DNA of 59,876 bases from an uncultured Polyangiales bacterium (GTDB lineage: Bacteria > Myxococcota_A > Polyangia > Polyangiales > CAYWAT01), in assembly GCA_964456305.1 (NCBI GenBank), contig CAYWAT010000001.1, forward strand, positions 23,001 to 82,876. Reading direction: 5' to 3'. The translations under genes were made by a program, and so were the position numbers. Below the pieces are notes generated by a model, which worked only from the letters and a program-made list of their open reading frames with translations, was not told the origin of the DNA and did not search any database. Positions within the stretch are counted from its first letter, which is position 1, and every line of letters starts with the position of its first letter. Positions 29,365-55,523 of the stretch are shown here, one piece after another.

Positions 29365-31005
29365 ATGCCTACCGATCCCTCTCTTTCCTCGGGCAACGCT
29401 TGCCTATCCTTTGACGACTTTGCGCTTGATGCGCGTCTTCTTGATGCCACCCGTAGTTTAGGTTTCGATAAACCCACACCTATTCAAGCGCAGTCCATTC
29501 CACATTTGCTTGCGGGCAAAAGCGTCATTGGTCGGGCTCGCACGGGTTCGGGCAAAACCGCTGCTTTTGGTTTGCCCTTGATGAATCTGCTCAAAGAAGG
29601 GAGCAGGTCGGTTCAAGCGTTGATCTTGGCGCCCACACGTGAGCTTGCCCTGCAGGTCAAAAATTCCCTAGCCAGTTATGCCGAGAACTTGCCTGTCGAT
29701 GTTGTGGCTATTTATGGCGGCGCCCCTTACGGTCCTCAGCTCCAGGCGCTGCGCCGTGGTGTCAGTGTAGTGGTGGGAACACCCGGTCGGGTGATCGATC
29801 ATCTTGAGCGTGGCTCCCTGGACTTGTCTCAGGTTAAGTTGCTGGTGCTCGATGAAGCTGACGAGATGCTGCGCATGGGATTTGTTGATGCGGTCACGCG
29901 TATCTTTGATGCTACCCCTGACAATCGCCAGGTGGCTTTGTTTTCTGCAACCATGCCGCAGCCCATCAAGAAAATCGCGCAGCGTTATATGTCAGCGCCC
30001 CTGGAAGTGCAGGTTGAGGAGCAGGCGTTAAGCACGGCGCATATCGAGCAGTTTTATGTGCTGTTGTCGCAGTCTCATAAAGCCGATGCGTTATTGAGAA
30101 TTCTCGGCGCTCAAGATTGGGAGACCGCCATTATTTTTGCCAAGACTAAGGTAGCCTGTGCAGAGGTGATGGACTTGCTGCGCACACACGGCTTTGCTGT
30201 GGAGGCACTGCACGGGGACTTGAATCAGGACGCGCGTGAGGGTGTTCTGAAGCGTATCCGTGCCAAACGTTCCAACGTTTTGGTGGCGACCGATGTGGCG
30301 GCTAGAGGTCTTGATGTGGATCACATCACCCATGTGATTAATCTCAGCCTGCCCATGGATCAGGAAACCTATGTGCATCGTATAGGTCGCACGGGGCGAG
30401 CAGGGCGCAAGGGCACTGCAGTTACTTTCGTGACTGCTGCGGAGAGGCGTAAGCTGCATTCTCTTAGAAAAGCGCTGTCTCTGGAGCTGAAGCATTTTCC
30501 TTTGCCCTCCGATGCGCAGGTCGCTGAGTACAAAGCTGATAAGGTTCATCAACGCATCATGGCTTCTGTTGAGAATGCCTCCTCATCCTCGACGATGCTG
30601 CGTGATCGCAGCCAGCGTCTTTTGGCAGAGTGCTCGCCTGATGTATTGGTGGGAGCTTGCCTGCGGATCTTAGGCAAGCAGACCGGCTTGGATTTCGATC
30701 GCGACCATAGTGCCGACCCCCCTGCCTGGAGTCAGGAGCAAGATGGTTTGGGTGAAGGCAATAGAGTGTCACGTCGAGGCGGCGCGGTACATCGACGCTC
30801 ACCCAAGGCAAAAAAAGCAGGTCATGCACGTAAAGGGTCGGGACCTGCATGGAAAACAAAAACACGTGCTAAACCCAGCGATGCGAATCCCAAAGCCAAA
30901 CCCATACGCTTCAAAAAAACCGCCAAGAAAAAAGTTCAAACCACCCATAAGTCAAAAACCTCGAGGGTGGTCAGGAAGCGCATCGTGACTCCCAAGAAGG
31001 GCTAG
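29365..31005 (+). CDS. DEAD-box ATP-dependent RNA helicase with basic C-terminal tail
   Basis: Q-motif region (FDDF..GFDKPTPIQ), Walker A ARTGSGKT, PTRELA, the DEAD box (VLDEADEML), SAT, and HRIGRTGRAG. The C-terminus is Lys/Arg-rich. Confidence 0.92.
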   Translation: MPTDPSLSSGNACLSFDDFALDARLLDATRSLGFDKPTPIQAQSIPHLLAGKSVIGRARTGSGKTAAFGLPLMNLLKEGSRSVQALILAPTRELALQVKNSLASYAENLPVDVVAIYGGAPYGPQLQALRRGVSVVVGTPGRVIDHLERGSLDLSQVKLLVLDEADEMLRMGFVDAVTRIFDATPDNRQVALFSATMPQPIKKIAQRYMSAPLEVQVEEQALSTAHIEQFYVLLSQSHKADALLRILGAQDWETAIIFAKTKVACAEVMDLLRTHGFAVEALHGDLNQDAREGVLKRIRAKRSNVLVATDVAARGLDVDHITHVINLSLPMDQETYVHRIGRTGRAGRKGTAVTFVTAAERRKLHSLRKALSLELKHFPLPSDAQVAEYKADKVHQRIMASVENASSSSTMLRDRSQRLLAECSPDVLVGACLRILGKQTGLDFDRDHSADPPAWSQEQDGLGEGNRVSRRGGAVHRRSPKAKKAGHARKGSGPAWKTKTRAKPSDANPKAKPIRFKKTAKKKVQTTHKSKTSRVVRKRIVTPKKG

Positions 31006-31189
31006 GTCGCTCTCAATTTGCTTTGAGCCTGAGCGTGCCCGGACCGCAGCGACGAAGGCGTATTAAAGATACGTCGACCTCCGGCTCTGCCGCACTCTGC
31101 TGCCCTGCTTCCGCAGGCGCTTGCCTCGCTCGCACGCATCGTGAGGACCGGCCGAAAGCCAGGATCAGAGTGAAGTGAGAGCGAGCCAG
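31002..31189 (+). repeat. MITE-like palindromic element, long form, copy A (188 nt)
   Basis: It is about 90 percent identical by eye to 46460..46647 and shares both about 45-nt arms with 45865..45993 and with the reverse complement of 55396..55523. The termini are inverted (CTAGGTCGCTCTCA ... TGAGAGCGAGCCAG). It fills the whole gap between two convergent stop codons (31003-31005 and 31192-31194). Confidence 0.85.
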
Positions 31190-32871: not shown

Positions 32872-33393
32872 CTAGCGTGCCCTCATGGGTCGGCGAACAG
32901 CCCCTGATCTTACCGGTCGACGTTCCCGCATTCTGCGCTGCATCGCTCCGGATTCTCGCTGTCTTCTGTCTGTGTTGTCTAGCCCGGGACGTCGTCTTTG
33001 CATACCCCTGTCAGGTCGTTGTCTGATTGCTCTAAGACGCCTGCCAATGCGCTCGCGTCGCTGTGAGGGATGAAGTTCCCGATACCTGCCGGACCCTCGT
33101 TGGGTACGGACGCGGCTGATGATGTCATCGATGGGCTCATGTGGATCCACGATGCCGATGCGTGATTTGATTTTGAGCTTGCGATACCTGCGTCGATTGC
33201 GGCCTTCGGTGTCAGGGCCTTTGTCTTGGGCGGGTCTTGCATGTACAAGCGGCACTTCTGCGGGTTCTGTGCTTTGGGCTTGTGTTGGGGCGGGGCCTAC
33301 GATGTTCACAAGACAGAGAAGTGCGCCGAGGCAGAGCAATGGTATGAACTCTTTGCCGCTCATGTATTTGGCTATGTGAGCCTTACCCGGCAT
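32872..33393 (-). CDS. secreted, extremely arginine-rich protein, unknown function
   Basis: Signal peptide (FIPLLCLGALLCLVNIVGPAPTQAQS) followed by a sequence dominated by Arg (RNRRRYRKLKIK.., RRERIGRRLRAIRQRPDRGMQRRRPG.., QRRMRERRPVR). The start is uncertain (33417, 33393 or 33363). The coding status rests on operon position and the signal peptide. Confidence 0.45.
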   Translation of the reverse strand: MPGKAHIAKYMSGKEFIPLLCLGALLCLVNIVGPAPTQAQSTEPAEVPLVHARPAQDKGPDTEGRNRRRYRKLKIKSRIGIVDPHEPIDDIISRVRTQRGSGRYRELHPSQRRERIGRRLRAIRQRPDRGMQRRRPGLDNTDRRQRESGAMQRRMRERRPVRSGAVRRPMRAR

Positions 33394-44677: not shown

Positions 44678-45868
44678 ATGCACCGACTCATTCAAGTTGC
44701 TGCGCTTAGCTGCTGTCTTTGGCTGTTCATCGCTTCCTTGGCGGTGGCGCAGTCGTCGCGCTCGCCATGGCGTCTTGGGGTGGATACGCAGCTTTATCTC
44801 GACAGCGATGATGTACGCACAATAACGCCGCAGGCCTTTCTCAACTACGCCCTCGATGATGAAGGAAGTGCGATTTCTATGCGCGCCCTGATCAGCCATA
44901 TCCACAATGGCTCGGTAGATGTGAGGGCTCATGGTCAGTCGCCTTATTCCGAGGTGCGCAGCGAGTTTAATGTGGGCTTCAGCAAGGCGATTAAGGGATG
45001 GTTGCCTGCGCTGAACTATCGTTTTTCCATCGAACCCGATTATGTTTCGCATGGATTGGAGGCACGCTTGAGCCGCTCCTTGGCAGGCGGGGATGCCTCC
45101 TTTTCGGTGGGGCTGCAGGCAAGCTTTGACGCGGTTGGGCGACGTGGGGAGCGCTTTGATTTTTGGCGTCACCGCTTTGATGGCTTGGGCGAATCGCTGG
45201 CTAATTATCGCAGTGACCTGAGCTATAGGCAGAACCTTGGTGAAAAAGCCCTGCTACGTTTCAAGCATAGTCTGACCATCCAGCGCGGGTACATGGAAAG
45301 CCCTTACCGTTACGTGCCCTTGTTTTCGCTTAATCGTGTGCTTGAGCTCGCCAGTCAGGGCGAGGTCATTGATGGCGATAATTTTGACGAACACCGTCTT
45401 GATGCCCGTCCTGCCGAGCAGTTGCCGGATACTCGCATCGGCACGGCCCTAGCGGTGGGGGGCATGCAGTACATCGATGCCATCCATGCAGCGTTGCTAT
45501 TGGACTACCAGTTTTACATCGATACCTGGGGTGTGGCTGCGCATGTGATCGAGCCTGCCATGCGCTTACAGGTGCATGAAGACTGGCAGGTGAAGGCTTT
45601 CTTGCGCTTCTATACTCAAGGCTCGGCCTCCTTTTGGGAGCCTTTATATATCGTTGCGGACACCCAGGCCCTGCCGCGCTGGCGCAGTAGTGACCGGCAT
45701 CTATCCGCCTATATTTCGGGCACCCTAGGCGCACGCGTCGATTGGCAGCATGGACCTTTTGCCGCCTATGCAGAGACCCAGGGCATGTACTCGCACTTTG
45801 ATCACTATCTCTTTTTGACGGGGCGTTGGGCTTTTATTGGGCAGCTGGGGTTACGATGGACACGCTAG
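44678..45868 (+). CDS. DUF3570-like predicted outer-membrane beta-barrel protein
   Basis: Signal peptide (CCLWLFIASLAVAQS), beta-strand-rich sequence and a C-terminal aromatic-rich strand (GQLGLRWTR). It starts 4 nt after the DUF4266-like gene. The family call is from memory of the conserved pair. Confidence 0.6.
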   Translation: MHRLIQVAALSCCLWLFIASLAVAQSSRSPWRLGVDTQLYLDSDDVRTITPQAFLNYALDDEGSAISMRALISHIHNGSVDVRAHGQSPYSEVRSEFNVGFSKAIKGWLPALNYRFSIEPDYVSHGLEARLSRSLAGGDASFSVGLQASFDAVGRRGERFDFWRHRFDGLGESLANYRSDLSYRQNLGEKALLRFKHSLTIQRGYMESPYRYVPLFSLNRVLELASQGEVIDGDNFDEHRLDARPAEQLPDTRIGTALAVGGMQYIDAIHAALLLDYQFYIDTWGVAAHVIEPAMRLQVHEDWQVKAFLRFYTQGSASFWEPLYIVADTQALPRWRSSDRHLSAYISGTLGARVDWQHGPFAAYAETQGMYSHFDHYLFLTGRWAFIGQLGLRWTR

Positions 45869-45993
45869 ATCGCTCTCAATTTGCTTTGAGCCTGAGTGCG
45901 CCCGGACCACAGGAACGAAAATGTATGTATAGATACCTTGAGAGACGCGGACCGGACGTAGACCAGGATCAGAGTAAAGTGAGGGCGGTCTAG
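45865..45993 (+). repeat. MITE-like palindromic element, short form, copy B (129 nt)
   Basis: It runs from CTAGATCGCTCTCAATTTGCTTTGAGCCTGAG... to ...CAGGATCAGAGTAAAGTGAGGGCGGTCTAG. The terminal inverted repeats are CTAGATCGCTCTCA / CTAGACCGCCCTCA (12 of 14). The arms are shared with copies A and C, and the core is shared with copy D. Its first TAG is the stop of the upstream gene, and its last G begins the GTG start of the next ORF. Confidence 0.85.
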
Positions 45994-46463
45994 TGCGCTG
46001 GGGGATTGTGTTCGCTGCTTTGATTTGTGGGGTGGCTTGTTATCAGCAGGAAGCCTTTTTGGTTCAAAATCCCGATGCCGATTTTTATCGCCTGGAGGTG
46101 CAGCCCTACCTGGCGCCCGCCTGCGCGTCCTCTTCCTGTCATGGCCGGGTGCAGCGACCTCTGCGTCTGTACTCCGCAGGTGGATTGCGACTAGACGATG
46201 CGACTGCCGCCAGTGATCCCTTGAGTGACGACGAGCTGCAGGCGAATATGCGTGCCTTACTAGGCTTAGATCCTGAGCGGATTGGCTCCGTCAATCACCT
46301 GGTGTTGACGAAACCTCTGTCAGAAAAAGCCGGCGGCGTTGAGCATGAGGAGGGTGAGATCATCTGGGCCTCGCCTGAGGATCCTGGGTATCTCTGCCTC
46401 TCGCGTTGGCTGATGGGTGATGAGGGCAACGAAACGCGCCAGGCGTGTGCCCAAGCACGCTAG
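45993..46463 (+). CDS. hypothetical lipoprotein with C-x4-C-H motif
   Basis: Lipobox-like AALICGVAC, then PACASSSCHG (Cys-x4-Cys-His, not a canonical CxxCH haem site). 156 aa. It is bracketed by two copies of the repeat element. GTG start. Confidence 0.45.
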   Translation: MRWGIVFAALICGVACYQQEAFLVQNPDADFYRLEVQPYLAPACASSSCHGRVQRPLRLYSAGGLRLDDATAASDPLSDDELQANMRALLGLDPERIGSVNHLVLTKPLSEKAGGVEHEEGEIIWASPEDPGYLCLSRWLMGDEGNETRQACAQAR

Positions 46464-46647
46464 ATCGCTCTCAATTTGCGTTGAGCCTGAGCGCGCCCGG
46501 ACCACAGCGACGAAGGCGTATTAAAGATACGTCGACCTCCGGCTCCGCCGCACTCTGCTGCCCTGCTTTCGCAGGCGCTCGCTTCGCTCGCACGCATCGT
46601 GAGGACCGGACGAAAACCAGGATCAGAGTGAAGTGAGGGCGGTCTAG
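46460..46647 (+). repeat. MITE-like palindromic element, long form, copy C (188 nt)
   Basis: It begins CTAGATCGCTCTCA and ends TGAGGGCGGTCTAG. It is about 90 percent identical to copy A by eye. The first TAG (46461-46463) is the stop of the upstream plus-strand ORF. The last CTA (46644-46646) is the reverse-complement TAG stop of the convergent helicase gene. Confidence 0.88.
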
Positions 46648-48671
46648 GTATCGAGTTTGTTTAAGATAGCCTGGGCCATTGAGGCGATTTCATCGTGTTG
46701 CATAGCTTTGGCCATCACCGGAACGTAATCACGCACGGATTCTTCGGGCAGATTTTGCAGAAATCGAGTGGGAGTTAGAGGCGTAAGTGTGCCGCGCAGG
46801 CTTTTGCGGCGTGGGCACATGCAATAGAGGAGGTCTTGTGCGCGTGTCATCCCTACGTAAAAGAGTCGCCGTTCTTCATCGACACTGATCGGCGAAGCAT
46901 CGTTGGCTTTGGGGTTCGTGCTGCGGGAATGAGGGATTTGTCCTTCGACGCAGCCGATCATGAACACCACCGGAAATTCCAGTCCTTTCACGGCATGCAG
47001 GGTGGAGAGGGTCACGCGGTTGTGTTGGCTTTCTTCTTCCTGGTTGATGCGCAGCGTAAGGCGCGTCAGGAAGTTCTGTATCGACGGTTTGGGCTCGGCA
47101 TGATTGCGTTCGTAACGCTCTATTGAACGCAACAAGAACTGGATATTGTCGTGACGCTTACGTGCTGAGGCGCCGTAGTCTTGTTCAAAGCGAGCGAGCG
47201 TAAAGCCGGCCTCGCGCAGCAGCGTTTCAGCGCAGGCATGCACCGCTTCACCCTTAAGGAGTCGCTGGCGCGCGCTCTCTAAAATCGAAAAGAGATATCC
47301 TGCGCTCTGCCTCGCAGCGGGCGGCAGTCCTGGGACCTGGGTCGCTTGACCAAGAGCGCGATACAAACTGATGTCTTGGGCCTGCGCATGCTGATTGAGT
47401 CGCTCTACGCTCTGAGGACCGATGCCGCGTGAGGGGTATTGCAGCATGCGGCGTATCGATAGCGCATCGCCTGGATTCACCAGGGTGCGTAGGTAAGCGA
47501 TGGCATCTTTGACCTCTTTGCGATCAAAATACTGCATGCCGCCGAGGAGTTGATAGGGCTGGTGGTTGATTCTCAGCTCTTCTTCGATGCGCCGGGCTTG
47601 TTGATTCGAACGATACAGAACGGCGATGTCTTGGTAACGGTAGTTGCACTGGTTGATCAAATTGCGAATCTCTGCACTTACTGCGCGCGCTTCCATCTCG
47701 GCATCATCGACGACGCAGCGACGCACGAAGGAGTCGTTGTCGCTGCGGGTTGCTCTTAGGGTCTTGAGGTATTTTTTATTGGGTACCTGCTGCATCAACC
47801 CATTGGCCGCTGCCAAAATGGGAGGACGGGAGCGGTAGTTGTCTTCGAGTTTAATCACCCGGGTGTTGGGGAAATGACTCTCGAAGTCGAGGATGTTACT
47901 AACTTCGGCGCCTCTCCAGCTGTAGATCGACTGGTCGTCATCACCTACCACGCAGACATTGCGCATGGGGTTGGCGAGCAGACGAACCAGTTCGAGCTGC
48001 GCATGGTTGGTATCCTGAAACTCGTCGATGAGCAGGTGACGAAAGCGCTCGCTCCAACGCCTTTGGATATCTGGATAGTGCCGGAGGATGCTCACGCATA
48101 AGCCCACCAGGTCATCAAAGTCCACGGCACGCAGCGCTCGCAAGGCCTCTTGGTACGCTGAGTAGATTGCTCGAGCCGCATTTTCGTAGTCACTGCGCGC
48201 GGCAGGCAAGGTCTTGGCGTCGAGTAGGCGTCCTTTCCATAAGGAAATCTGGGCCTGCACGGCGGTGGCATCCATGCGCCGATCCTGCACCTGTTCGCGC
48301 AGCAAACTACGCACTAAACCGACACTGTCACTCTGGTCAAACATGGTGAATCCCCCTCGTCCCCAGGCATGGTGCAGTTCTGCGTTAAGGAAACGCACGC
48401 CAAAGCGATGAAAGGTGGATAGCCAGAGTTTCTCGCAGGCGTCTTTAGGCATCAGCTTGCGCATGCGCGCCTGCATCTCTTCGGCGGCTTTGTTGGTAAA
48501 GCTTACCGCCATGATGCTTTCAGGGCGTATGCCTGAGTTGACCAGCTGTGCGATGCGCTGGGTGATCACCCTTGTTTTGCCGCTGCCCGCACCGGCTAGC
48601 ACCAGCAGGGGTCCTTGGCTGTGCAGAACGGCGTTGCGTTGATGCGTGTTAAGAGACTCGAGGGAAACCAT
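46644..48671 (-). CDS. uvrD: UvrD/PcrA/Rep-family ATP-dependent DNA helicase
   Basis: LNTHQRNAV, Walker A AGAGSGKT, FTNKAAEEM, LIDEFQDTN (motif II), VGDDDQSIYSWRGA, YRS, TLHAVKGLEFPVVF and RRLFYVGMTRA. The internal ATG at 48671 is preferred to TTG 48707. Confidence 0.92.
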   Translation of the reverse strand: MVSLESLNTHQRNAVLHSQGPLLVLAGAGSGKTRVITQRIAQLVNSGIRPESIMAVSFTNKAAEEMQARMRKLMPKDACEKLWLSTFHRFGVRFLNAELHHAWGRGGFTMFDQSDSVGLVRSLLREQVQDRRMDATAVQAQISLWKGRLLDAKTLPAARSDYENAARAIYSAYQEALRALRAVDFDDLVGLCVSILRHYPDIQRRWSERFRHLLIDEFQDTNHAQLELVRLLANPMRNVCVVGDDDQSIYSWRGAEVSNILDFESHFPNTRVIKLEDNYRSRPPILAAANGLMQQVPNKKYLKTLRATRSDNDSFVRRCVVDDAEMEARAVSAEIRNLINQCNYRYQDIAVLYRSNQQARRIEEELRINHQPYQLLGGMQYFDRKEVKDAIAYLRTLVNPGDALSIRRMLQYPSRGIGPQSVERLNQHAQAQDISLYRALGQATQVPGLPPAARQSAGYLFSILESARQRLLKGEAVHACAETLLREAGFTLARFEQDYGASARKRHDNIQFLLRSIERYERNHAEPKPSIQNFLTRLTLRINQEEESQHNRVTLSTLHAVKGLEFPVVFMIGCVEGQIPHSRSTNPKANDASPISVDEERRLFYVGMTRAQDLLYCMCPRRKSLRGTLTPLTPTRFLQNLPEESVRDYVPVMAKAMQHDEIASMAQAILNKLDT

Positions 48672-55395: not shown

Positions 55396-55523
55396 CAGAC
55401 TGCCCTTGCTTCACTCTGAGTCTTGGCTTTCGTCCGGTCCTCACCCCTCAAGGTATCCATATGTACATTTTCGGTTTTGCGGTCCGGGCGCGCTCAAGCT
55501 CAAAGCAAATCAAGAGCAGTCTG
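55396..55523 (-). repeat. MITE-like palindromic element, short form, copy D (128 nt, inverted orientation)
   Basis: The reverse complement aligns along its whole length with copy B (shared core ..AAAATGTA..ATAGATACCTTGAG.. and both arms). The termini are CAGACTGCCCTTG / CAGACTGCTCTTG. It lies between aroQ and accB. Its last 24 nt encode the final 7 codons and the TGA stop of aroQ. Confidence 0.8.

Follow-up and report, generated by a model that had tools for sequence, protein, structure and literature searches.

The DNA stretch analysed here, referred to as the window in the following, comprises 59,876 nt of contig CAYWAT010000001.1 (GCA_964456305.1) from an uncultured Polyangiales bacterium and has a G + C content of 53%. 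It harbours four copies, named A to D, of a short and non-coding repeat of 128–188 nt, which is probably a non-autonomous, hairpin-forming MITE (miniature inverted-repeat transposable element) that inserts at TA dinucleotides, preferably at those lying within a CTAG tetranucleotide, and that would thereby rebuild the TAG stop codons of the genes on whose ends it lands. The family is new by sequence, while the kind of element it represents is well known and the mechanism is not new.

The four copies reside exactly at the positions given by an earlier, sequence-only reading of this DNA (Table 1), and the recurrence of their sequence is far above chance, as a 20-mer from the left arm occurs four times in the window with an expectation of 0.00, and the motif GCCCGGACC four times with an expectation of 0.34. 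A profile built from the copies and run over the window retrieved no fifth copy. Common to all four are a left and a right arm of about 45 nt each, which were already described in that reading as imperfectly complementary to each other and which indeed join in one long stem upon folding. The two long forms, A and C, are 94% identical across 183 nt. At less than 300 bp, the copies have the size of a bacterial MITE. With respect to coding capacity, most of their frames contain stops, and no homologue was found for the one open frame of 69 amino acids.

The spread of the family was judged from the contigs of the source metagenome (run X1) that match the window, of which 239 fall on the region of copies B and C and 128 on the region of copy A. 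Summed word depth ranges from 150 to 1086 on bins containing the element and from 3 to 6 on the unique flanks, and the resulting ratio of 30- to 250-fold, which is not a true copy number, suggests that the family is dispersed and has between tens and a few hundred members, in agreement with the presence of four copies in 60 kb. A segmental duplication limited to this region, as might be suspected from copies B and C being only 595 nt apart and both having CACG in front of their CTAG, can in turn be ruled out with near certainty as the source of the similarity, because the element is found between unrelated flanks in hundreds of metagenome contigs, the similarity of all copies breaks off precisely at their termini, and one further copy occurs in another sample and lineage. 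The latter (L028) was the only true copy among 26 loci obtained in a scan of JGI metagenomes. As the contig on which it resides has a G + C content of 61% when compared to 53% in the window, a second lineage carries the family, be it by descent or by transfer. The dispersed, multi-copy and non-coding nature of the family and the differing flanks of its members support the sequence-only reading. Near-identical words of the element were not found outside the source sample, and a scan of viral contigs returned only chance matches. The left-arm pattern gave just two chance matches, both inside coding sequence, in a collection of contigs from species genomes that does not include the genome of the window, and neither known RNA families (Rfam) nor plasmid records showed a match to the element.

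The supposition of two alternative cores between the arms, on the other hand, did not hold, as there are at least four: in addition to the long and the short form the contigs show an intermediate core, which corresponds to the long form minus 62–65 nt and is also present in L028, as well as a fourth core. All core variants retain an apical GTAT...ATAC hairpin. The segment of 62–65 nt (31078-31142 and 46536-46600 in the window) is either cleanly present in a contig or cleanly replaced by GAAGC, GACGC or GAGGC, and it seems to act as a separate indel module in the core.

The same contigs define the boundaries of the element. Since their flanks part from the window exactly at 45865, 46460-46462 and 46646-46648 and have no consensus beyond these points, the three positions are true element ends. 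The TA by which copies B and C had been described as bounded is present at the ends, but the terminus shared by the contig junctions, by B, by C and by L028 is fuller and reads CTAG, resulting in junctions of the form C-TA-G...C-TA-G at both ends of these three copies. The outer C and G are shared in about 70–80% of the junction contigs, which makes CTAG the usual border, and are missing in about 20–30% of the junctions. The family consensus starts with CTAGACCGC... and ends with ...GCGGTCTAG, which form the terminal inverted repeats. Relative to the shared CTAG, the right end of copy A (CCAG) and both ends of copy D (CAG/CTG) are decayed. At the positions where copy A deviates, the consensus of the loose ends of contigs reads ...CTAGAC again at the left end and GTCTAG... 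at the right end, and it is because this consensus reads CTAG that the CCAG of copy A is considered a decayed end. Copy D belongs to a subfamily with AGACTGC ends, other members of which carry TA before AGACTGC.

As to the unit that might have been duplicated upon insertion, two models predict identical empty sites. A duplication of TA, as brought about by transposases of the IS630/Tc1-mariner type, is somewhat favoured over a duplication of CTAG, because the flanks of copy D, G-[CA]...[TG]-A, would require two changes under the former and four under the latter, and because 20–30% of the junctions lack the outer C or G, as is to be expected if only the TA is obligatory. According to the other model, the same MITE would owe its movement to a transposase of the IS5 or IS1182 type, with the 4-bp CTAG (YTAR) being duplicated, such that the element proper would be ACCGC...GCGGT and both CTAGs would be copies of the target. 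This is consistent with a 4-bp repeat that is identical on both sides of B, C and L028, with the prevalence of the outer C and G among the junction contigs, and with the IS5-derived MITEPsy1, for which CTAG or YTAA serves as the insertion site and the duplication is 4 nt long (PMC3189936). However, the repeat is CTAG/CCAG in copy A and GCAG/CTGA in copy D, the latter accounting for the four changes, and the termini of the present element are unlike the GGAAGGT... ends of MITEPsy1/ISPsy2. Together with the junctions devoid of an outer C or G, this renders a 4-bp duplication the less likely of the two.

What links the element to the neighbouring genes is that CTAG holds a TAG on both strands, and that G and C are the first and the last base, respectively, of the element proper (consensus GACCGC...GCGGTC). 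If the element is inserted into the TA of a CTAG, for which it would have a strong preference, the duplicated target together with the terminal G and C of the element would restore C-TA-G at both junctions. Where a stop codon, be it TAG or TAA, lies over the target, it would in this way be rebuilt as TAG, namely at the left junction if the gene is on the plus strand and at the right one if the gene is convergent. The insertion would leave the protein unchanged and could hence survive in a compact genome, and insertions in coding sequence or in 5' regions would be removed by selection.

This geometry is met with in the window. Four junctions coincide with in-frame TAGs of neighbouring genes and the CAG of copy D is aligned in frame with them, so that insertion into stop codons, as proposed by the sequence-only reading, fits all copies. 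In L028, the TAG of the left junction likewise closes a frame that has no other stop in the 31 codons available, with a third-position G + C content (GC3) of 0.83. The five stop codons that had been assigned to the element termini are all found where they had been placed. The notion that the elements contain these stops is correct only insofar as the stops lie in the termini, as on the simplest reading the TAGs belonged to the pre-existing target and were not donated, and aroQ is the only gene that truly ends inside an element. The stop codons most probably pre-existed as part of the target (C-TA-G), because donated stops would be in frame in only one out of three cases, and at copy C this would have to apply to both ends at once.

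Donated stops are part of a further model, in which a REPIN-like repeat is moved as single-stranded DNA by an enzyme of the HUH/RAYT type, the CTAG belonging to the element and no target being duplicated. The long hairpin with its compensatory evolution and its strand-specific tolerance of G.T pairs (see below) would suit a strand-specific single-stranded substrate, gene 3' ends and convergent junctions are preferred as is the case with REPs, and the terminal tetranucleotide is conserved. Yet four or five of the junction TAGs share the frame of the adjoining genes and mark sensible protein ends, which comes automatically with a duplicated CTAG but is unlikely, at about 1 in 3 per junction, for a donated one. 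Moreover, the 45-nt arms are not REP-like palindromes with GTAG, and a length of 128–188 nt along with inverted termini that contain TA is the pattern of MITEs (PMC2229807), making this model very improbable.

Removal of the copies in silico reveals what the sites might have looked like before insertion. Without copy B the sequence reads ...ACACGCTAGTGCGC, i.e., a stop-start overlap of TAG and GTG (TAGTG), which is plausible because relatives of the downstream gene, ORF156 (see below), sit in operons with overlapping junctions. Without copy C it reads ...GCACGCTAGGTATC, where two convergent stops share one CTAG, and without copy A a gap of 2 nt is left between convergent stops. The window contains 71 CTAGs (0.83 of the Markov expectation), 47 of them inside genes; three of the eight stop-codon sites are occupied by the element in contrast to none of the 12 intergenic sites (p ~0.05, Fisher's exact test), and 25 of the 265 non-coding TAs are located in stop codons. 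The placement is most simply explained by a target preference in combination with the loss of those insertions by which promoters, 5' leaders or coding sequence are damaged.

Two side observations concern the target. The stops in the window are unusually rich in TAG, with 15 TAG, 13 TAA and 21 TGA among 49 greedy open reading frames (ORFs), and a C stands before nine of the 15 TAGs, offering many landing sites to an element that seeks CTAG. In copies B and C, CACG is found directly before the CTAG (45861-45864 and 46456-46459, respectively), and an unoccupied stop-codon site at 32872 on the minus strand also reads CACGCTAG; this shared CACG may be due to chance or to an extended target preference.

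Table 1. Element copies and adjoining codons. Positions refer to the window except for L028.
Feature	Position	Strand	Form and length	Remarks
Copy A	31002-31189	+	long, 188 nt	left end CTAG, right end decayed to CCAG
Copy B	45865-45993	+	short, 129 nt	CTAG at left and right ends
Copy C	46460-46647	+	long, 188 nt	CTAG at left and right ends
Copy D	55396-55523	-	short, 128 nt	termini CAG...CTG; between aroQ and accB
Copy L028	3876-4003 of Ga0075356_1001170		intermediate core, 128 nt	CTAG-bounded, between convergent genes
DEAD-box helicase TAG	31003-31005	+		inside left CTAG of copy A
TPR gene TAA	31192-31194	-		convergent gene; right end of copy A 2 nt before the TAA
DUF3570 gene TAG	45866-45868	+		inside left CTAG of copy B
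GTG start of ORF 45993..46463	45993	+		first base is the last G of copy B
TAG of ORF 45993..46463	46461-46463	+		inside left CTAG of copy C
uvrD TAG	46644-46646	-		inside right CTAG of copy C
aroQ TGA (present stop)	55500-55502	-		23 nt inside left arm of copy D
CAG codon, Gln147 of AroQ	55521-55523	-		in frame with the junction TAG position of other copies

Copy D, which lies inside the aroQ-accB-accC operon, is the exception with respect to the unchanged protein. The reading frame of aroQ enters its left arm by seven codons (QTALDLL) up to the present TGA, and the CAG codon at the junction may be the former stop codon. At the end pair concerned (2/189 of the alignment), U-A is replaced by C-G on both sides. 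The junction TAG of aroQ would accordingly have mutated to CAG as one half of a compensatory change of the stem from U-A to C-G, upon which translation would read through to the TGA seven codons later. The homologues of AroQ end 2–13 residues after a conserved ...LVxHL, which is compatible with an extension of the tail.

Irrespective of the insertion process, the arms evolve as a stem. Copies B and D fold at -56.6 kcal/mol (z -6.7) and -57.7 kcal/mol (z -7.2), respectively, with none of 200 shuffles being as good in either case, and values near -80 (z about -3) were obtained for the long forms. In an alignment of the five distinct copies (A to D and L028), 93% of the cells are paired, and 11 pairs are changed on both sides as compared to 3.1 ± 1.4 in shuffled alignments (0/500) and to at most 2 when the partner is slid along. 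RNAalifold, run independently, returned the same stem with 13 compensatory pairs. The arms of L028 have changed at many positions with their complementarity being kept. The check for folding and covariation that had been suggested along with the sequence-only reading has thus turned out in its favour. The same is true for its remark that T-versus-C mismatches between the arms are G-U compatible in the sense orientation, since 22 G.U cells at 9 sites stand against 6 A.C cells at 3 sites on the sense strand. Furthermore, the sense strand folds better than the antisense strand by 2–10 kcal/mol in five out of five copies, and in every copy the better-folding strand is sense to the gene that has its stop at the left end. 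That the same strand of the element is always sense to the gene upstream is likewise what is seen, with only four copies being informative in this regard as copy C has stops at both ends.

The compensation along 28 bp and the swapping of cores around conserved arms speak for selection on the fold, and the strand bias speaks for an RNA hairpin. Upon transcription as part of a 3' or intercistronic region, both 45-nt arms would pair in a stem of about 28 + 10 bp, which itself is probably maintained by selection on one strand. Judging from this analysis, its most likely role would be that of a 3' hairpin in RNA serving as a barrier to exonucleases or as a site for RNase III/E, as has been shown for ERIC and Correia elements (PMC10969869). 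A classic intrinsic (Rho-independent) terminator was also considered and was rejected. It is unlikely because no U-tract follows the stem, the sequences downstream of the elements (TGCGCTGG, GTATCGAG, ACTTAAAT and ACGCGTTG) having no T-run and no terminator-like site being found at the elements, and because copy D lies within an operon.

The hairpin might alternatively be a mere by-product of long inverted ends in a passive MITE that plays no role at the RNA level, its position being determined by target choice and purging and its wobble pairs by mutation. The geometry of the target alone would indeed explain why insertions into stop codons are tolerated, and the missing U-tract and the small number of informative copies behind the orientation rule are in line with such a passive element, as is the fact that a C-to-T bias on the non-template strand would yield U.G pairs on the sense strand. 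However, the compensatory changes extend over 28 bp and into the apical GTAT...ATAC hairpin and therefore far past the end that a transposase typically binds, pairing has been kept in L028 in spite of the divergence of its arms, the same strand is the better-folding one in each of the five copies, and cores have been swapped while arms and apical hairpin persist. A purely passive element thus appears possible but rather doubtful.

In the right arm of copy B (45977-45995) a Shine-Dalgarno-like GAGGG, 7 nt before the GTG of the downstream gene, is held in the stem. A more far-reaching hypothesis, which on present sequence data has a low probability, sees the element as a 'safe-harbour' specialist for stop codons with a selected and strand-specific RNA hairpin, which would colonise stop/start and stop/stop overlaps and provide for operonic coupling at copy B and for insulation between convergent genes. 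If this were true, the G...C termini and the TA duplication would permit the colonisation of such overlaps in a compact genome, and the stem would draw the two junctions together. At copy B, a ribosome ending at the left TAG would melt the first 12–15 nt of the left arm and thereby free the GAGGG and the start codon, such that translational coupling would be kept across the insertion of 125 nt, and at A, C and L028 the stem would insulate the convergent transcripts from each other.

Several points weigh against the view of the element as a hairpin MITE that inserts at TA in CTAG, rebuilds stop codons and is maintained for its RNA fold. The enrichment at stop codons rests on four to five copies with a Fisher p of about 0.05, and the depth ratios do not equal copy numbers. 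No empty site was found, neither as precise-excision joints among the contigs of the source metagenome nor via the relatives of ORF156 and AroQ, the proteins of which are 37–70% identical and of which even the nearest (46% and 70%, respectively) are too distant for the junctions to be compared; the target duplication can for this reason only be inferred. No transposase domain was detected in any of 45 ORFs of the window, as had been noted before, and a transposase with matching ends, which by the size of the presumed duplication would be of the IS630/Tc1-mariner type, is hence absent from it. The wobble bias may stem from transcription-linked C-to-T mutation or may reflect selection on a hairpin of single-stranded DNA, and the lack of a U-tract leaves the function of a classic terminator unsupported. 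With regard to aroQ, the nearest homologue ends in ...HLQTQT, so that the 'QT' after HL may be native to the protein; the AGACTGC terminus, which copy D shares with other copies, bears against this alternative.

Regarding the neighbouring genes, Pfam confirms the DEAD-box helicase, the DUF3570 protein, UvrD, the type II dehydroquinase (aroQ) and AccB. ORF 45993..46463, which copies B and C enclose, is a genuine gene for a protein of 156 amino acids (ORF156) with 12 homologues of 37–46% identity, located in DUF4266-DUF3570 operons with overlapping gene junctions. The family is uncharacterised but conserved, with invariant C-A-x4-C-H-G, RPLRLY, KPL..AGG and PGYLC motifs and a lipoprotein-like N-terminus, and is always found downstream of DUF4266-DUF3570 (in the window and at loci L037, L038, L040 and L041). 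In the relatives, an additional gene of about 190 amino acids, which is absent from the window, lies between DUF3570 and the homologue of ORF156.

If the element is a MITE of the proposed kind, the family would explain why assemblies of this organism break every few kilobases and why the ends of several genes seem to fall 'inside' a repeat, and would flag one real change in a protein, the tail of AroQ. It would be a clean example of how the choice of TA in CTAG as a target and the terminal bases of an element together make stop codons neutral landing sites. Finally, together with a complete genome and RNA data, the family could be used to test for RNA-level selection on such hairpins, which is a question for ERIC-like elements in general.

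Among known repeats, REP/BIME and REPIN elements likewise form hairpins, are located at the 3' ends of genes and between convergent genes, and have stems that evolve in a compensatory manner. However, REPs are palindromes of 20–40 nt with GTAG which are moved by RAYTs without target duplication, whereas the present arms measure 45 nt, are without GTAG and pair with each other instead of on themselves. According to what Liang and Deutscher are said to have reported in 2015, REPs close to a stop codon can affect the translation of the upstream gene. QMITE1 and QMITE2 of Coxiella burnetii overlap the 3' ends of functional genes by 1–50 bp, extend EnhC in frame and sit in 3' untranslated regions, and their stable stem has been proposed as a substrate for RNase III (PMC5896051). 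In contrast to the present family, their direct repeats are variable with 7–11 nt, QMITE2 contains a GTAG REP, and no CTAG/TA rule applies.

Two further MITEs have short direct repeats and inverted ends, namely the IS5-derived MITEPsy1 of Pseudomonas syringae, the target of which is given above (PMC3189936), and the IS1182-related MITEPye1 of Paracoccus yeei (PMC11578231). They differ from the present element by their 4-nt duplication and 18-nt ends (GGAAGGT...), and neither a long hairpin nor an association with stop codons has been reported for them. In a comparison by eye, which for the IS5 group covered the MITEPsy1 end only, GGAAGGTCTGAAAAAGCC of MITEPsy1 had nothing in common with GACCGCTCTCAATTTGC (PMC3189936).

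Closer in kind are IS630 and the MITEs derived from it such as RUP, the repeat unit of pneumococcus, with which the present family shares the small size, the lack of coding capacity, inverted termini, a presumed insertion at TA and a copy number of tens to hundreds. As excerpted in PMC6811581, IS630 prefers TA within 5'-CTAG-3' and duplicates the TA (Tenzen & Ohtsubo 1991); RUP has been traced to IS630-Spn1, and bacterial MITEs generally have TA termini (PMC2229807). The likeness is one of description, none being known in sequence, and the present element differs from these MITEs by arms that pair over about 45 nt and are thus far longer than usual ends, by being G + C-rich instead of A + T-rich, and by its several interchangeable cores.

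ERIC (also IRU or RU-1) is unrelated in sequence, the 127-bp ERIC consensus bearing no likeness to the present element, and belongs to the Enterobacteriaceae, hosts of a different phylum. Its longer forms reportedly arise by internal insertions of about 70 bp, as Wilson and Sharp are said to have described in 2006. In other respects there is a resemblance. With a length of about 127 nt, ERIC forms an imperfect palindrome folding from end to end, has TA termini, duplicates TA, as is presumed for the present element, and occurs in length variants (PMC2759123). It is found at gene 3' ends, is co-transcribed and is in some copies fused to the 3' ends of ORFs (PMC2759123, PMC10969869), the last of which is seen here in copy D. 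At gene 3' ends ERIC affects transcript levels (PMC10969869). The texts cited (PMC2759123, PMC10969869) mention neither a preference of ERIC for CTAG nor a systematic rebuilding of TAG at its two junctions. As far as its sequence allows to judge, the present element would therefore work like a bacterial MITE of the ERIC or RUP type without being a member of either family.

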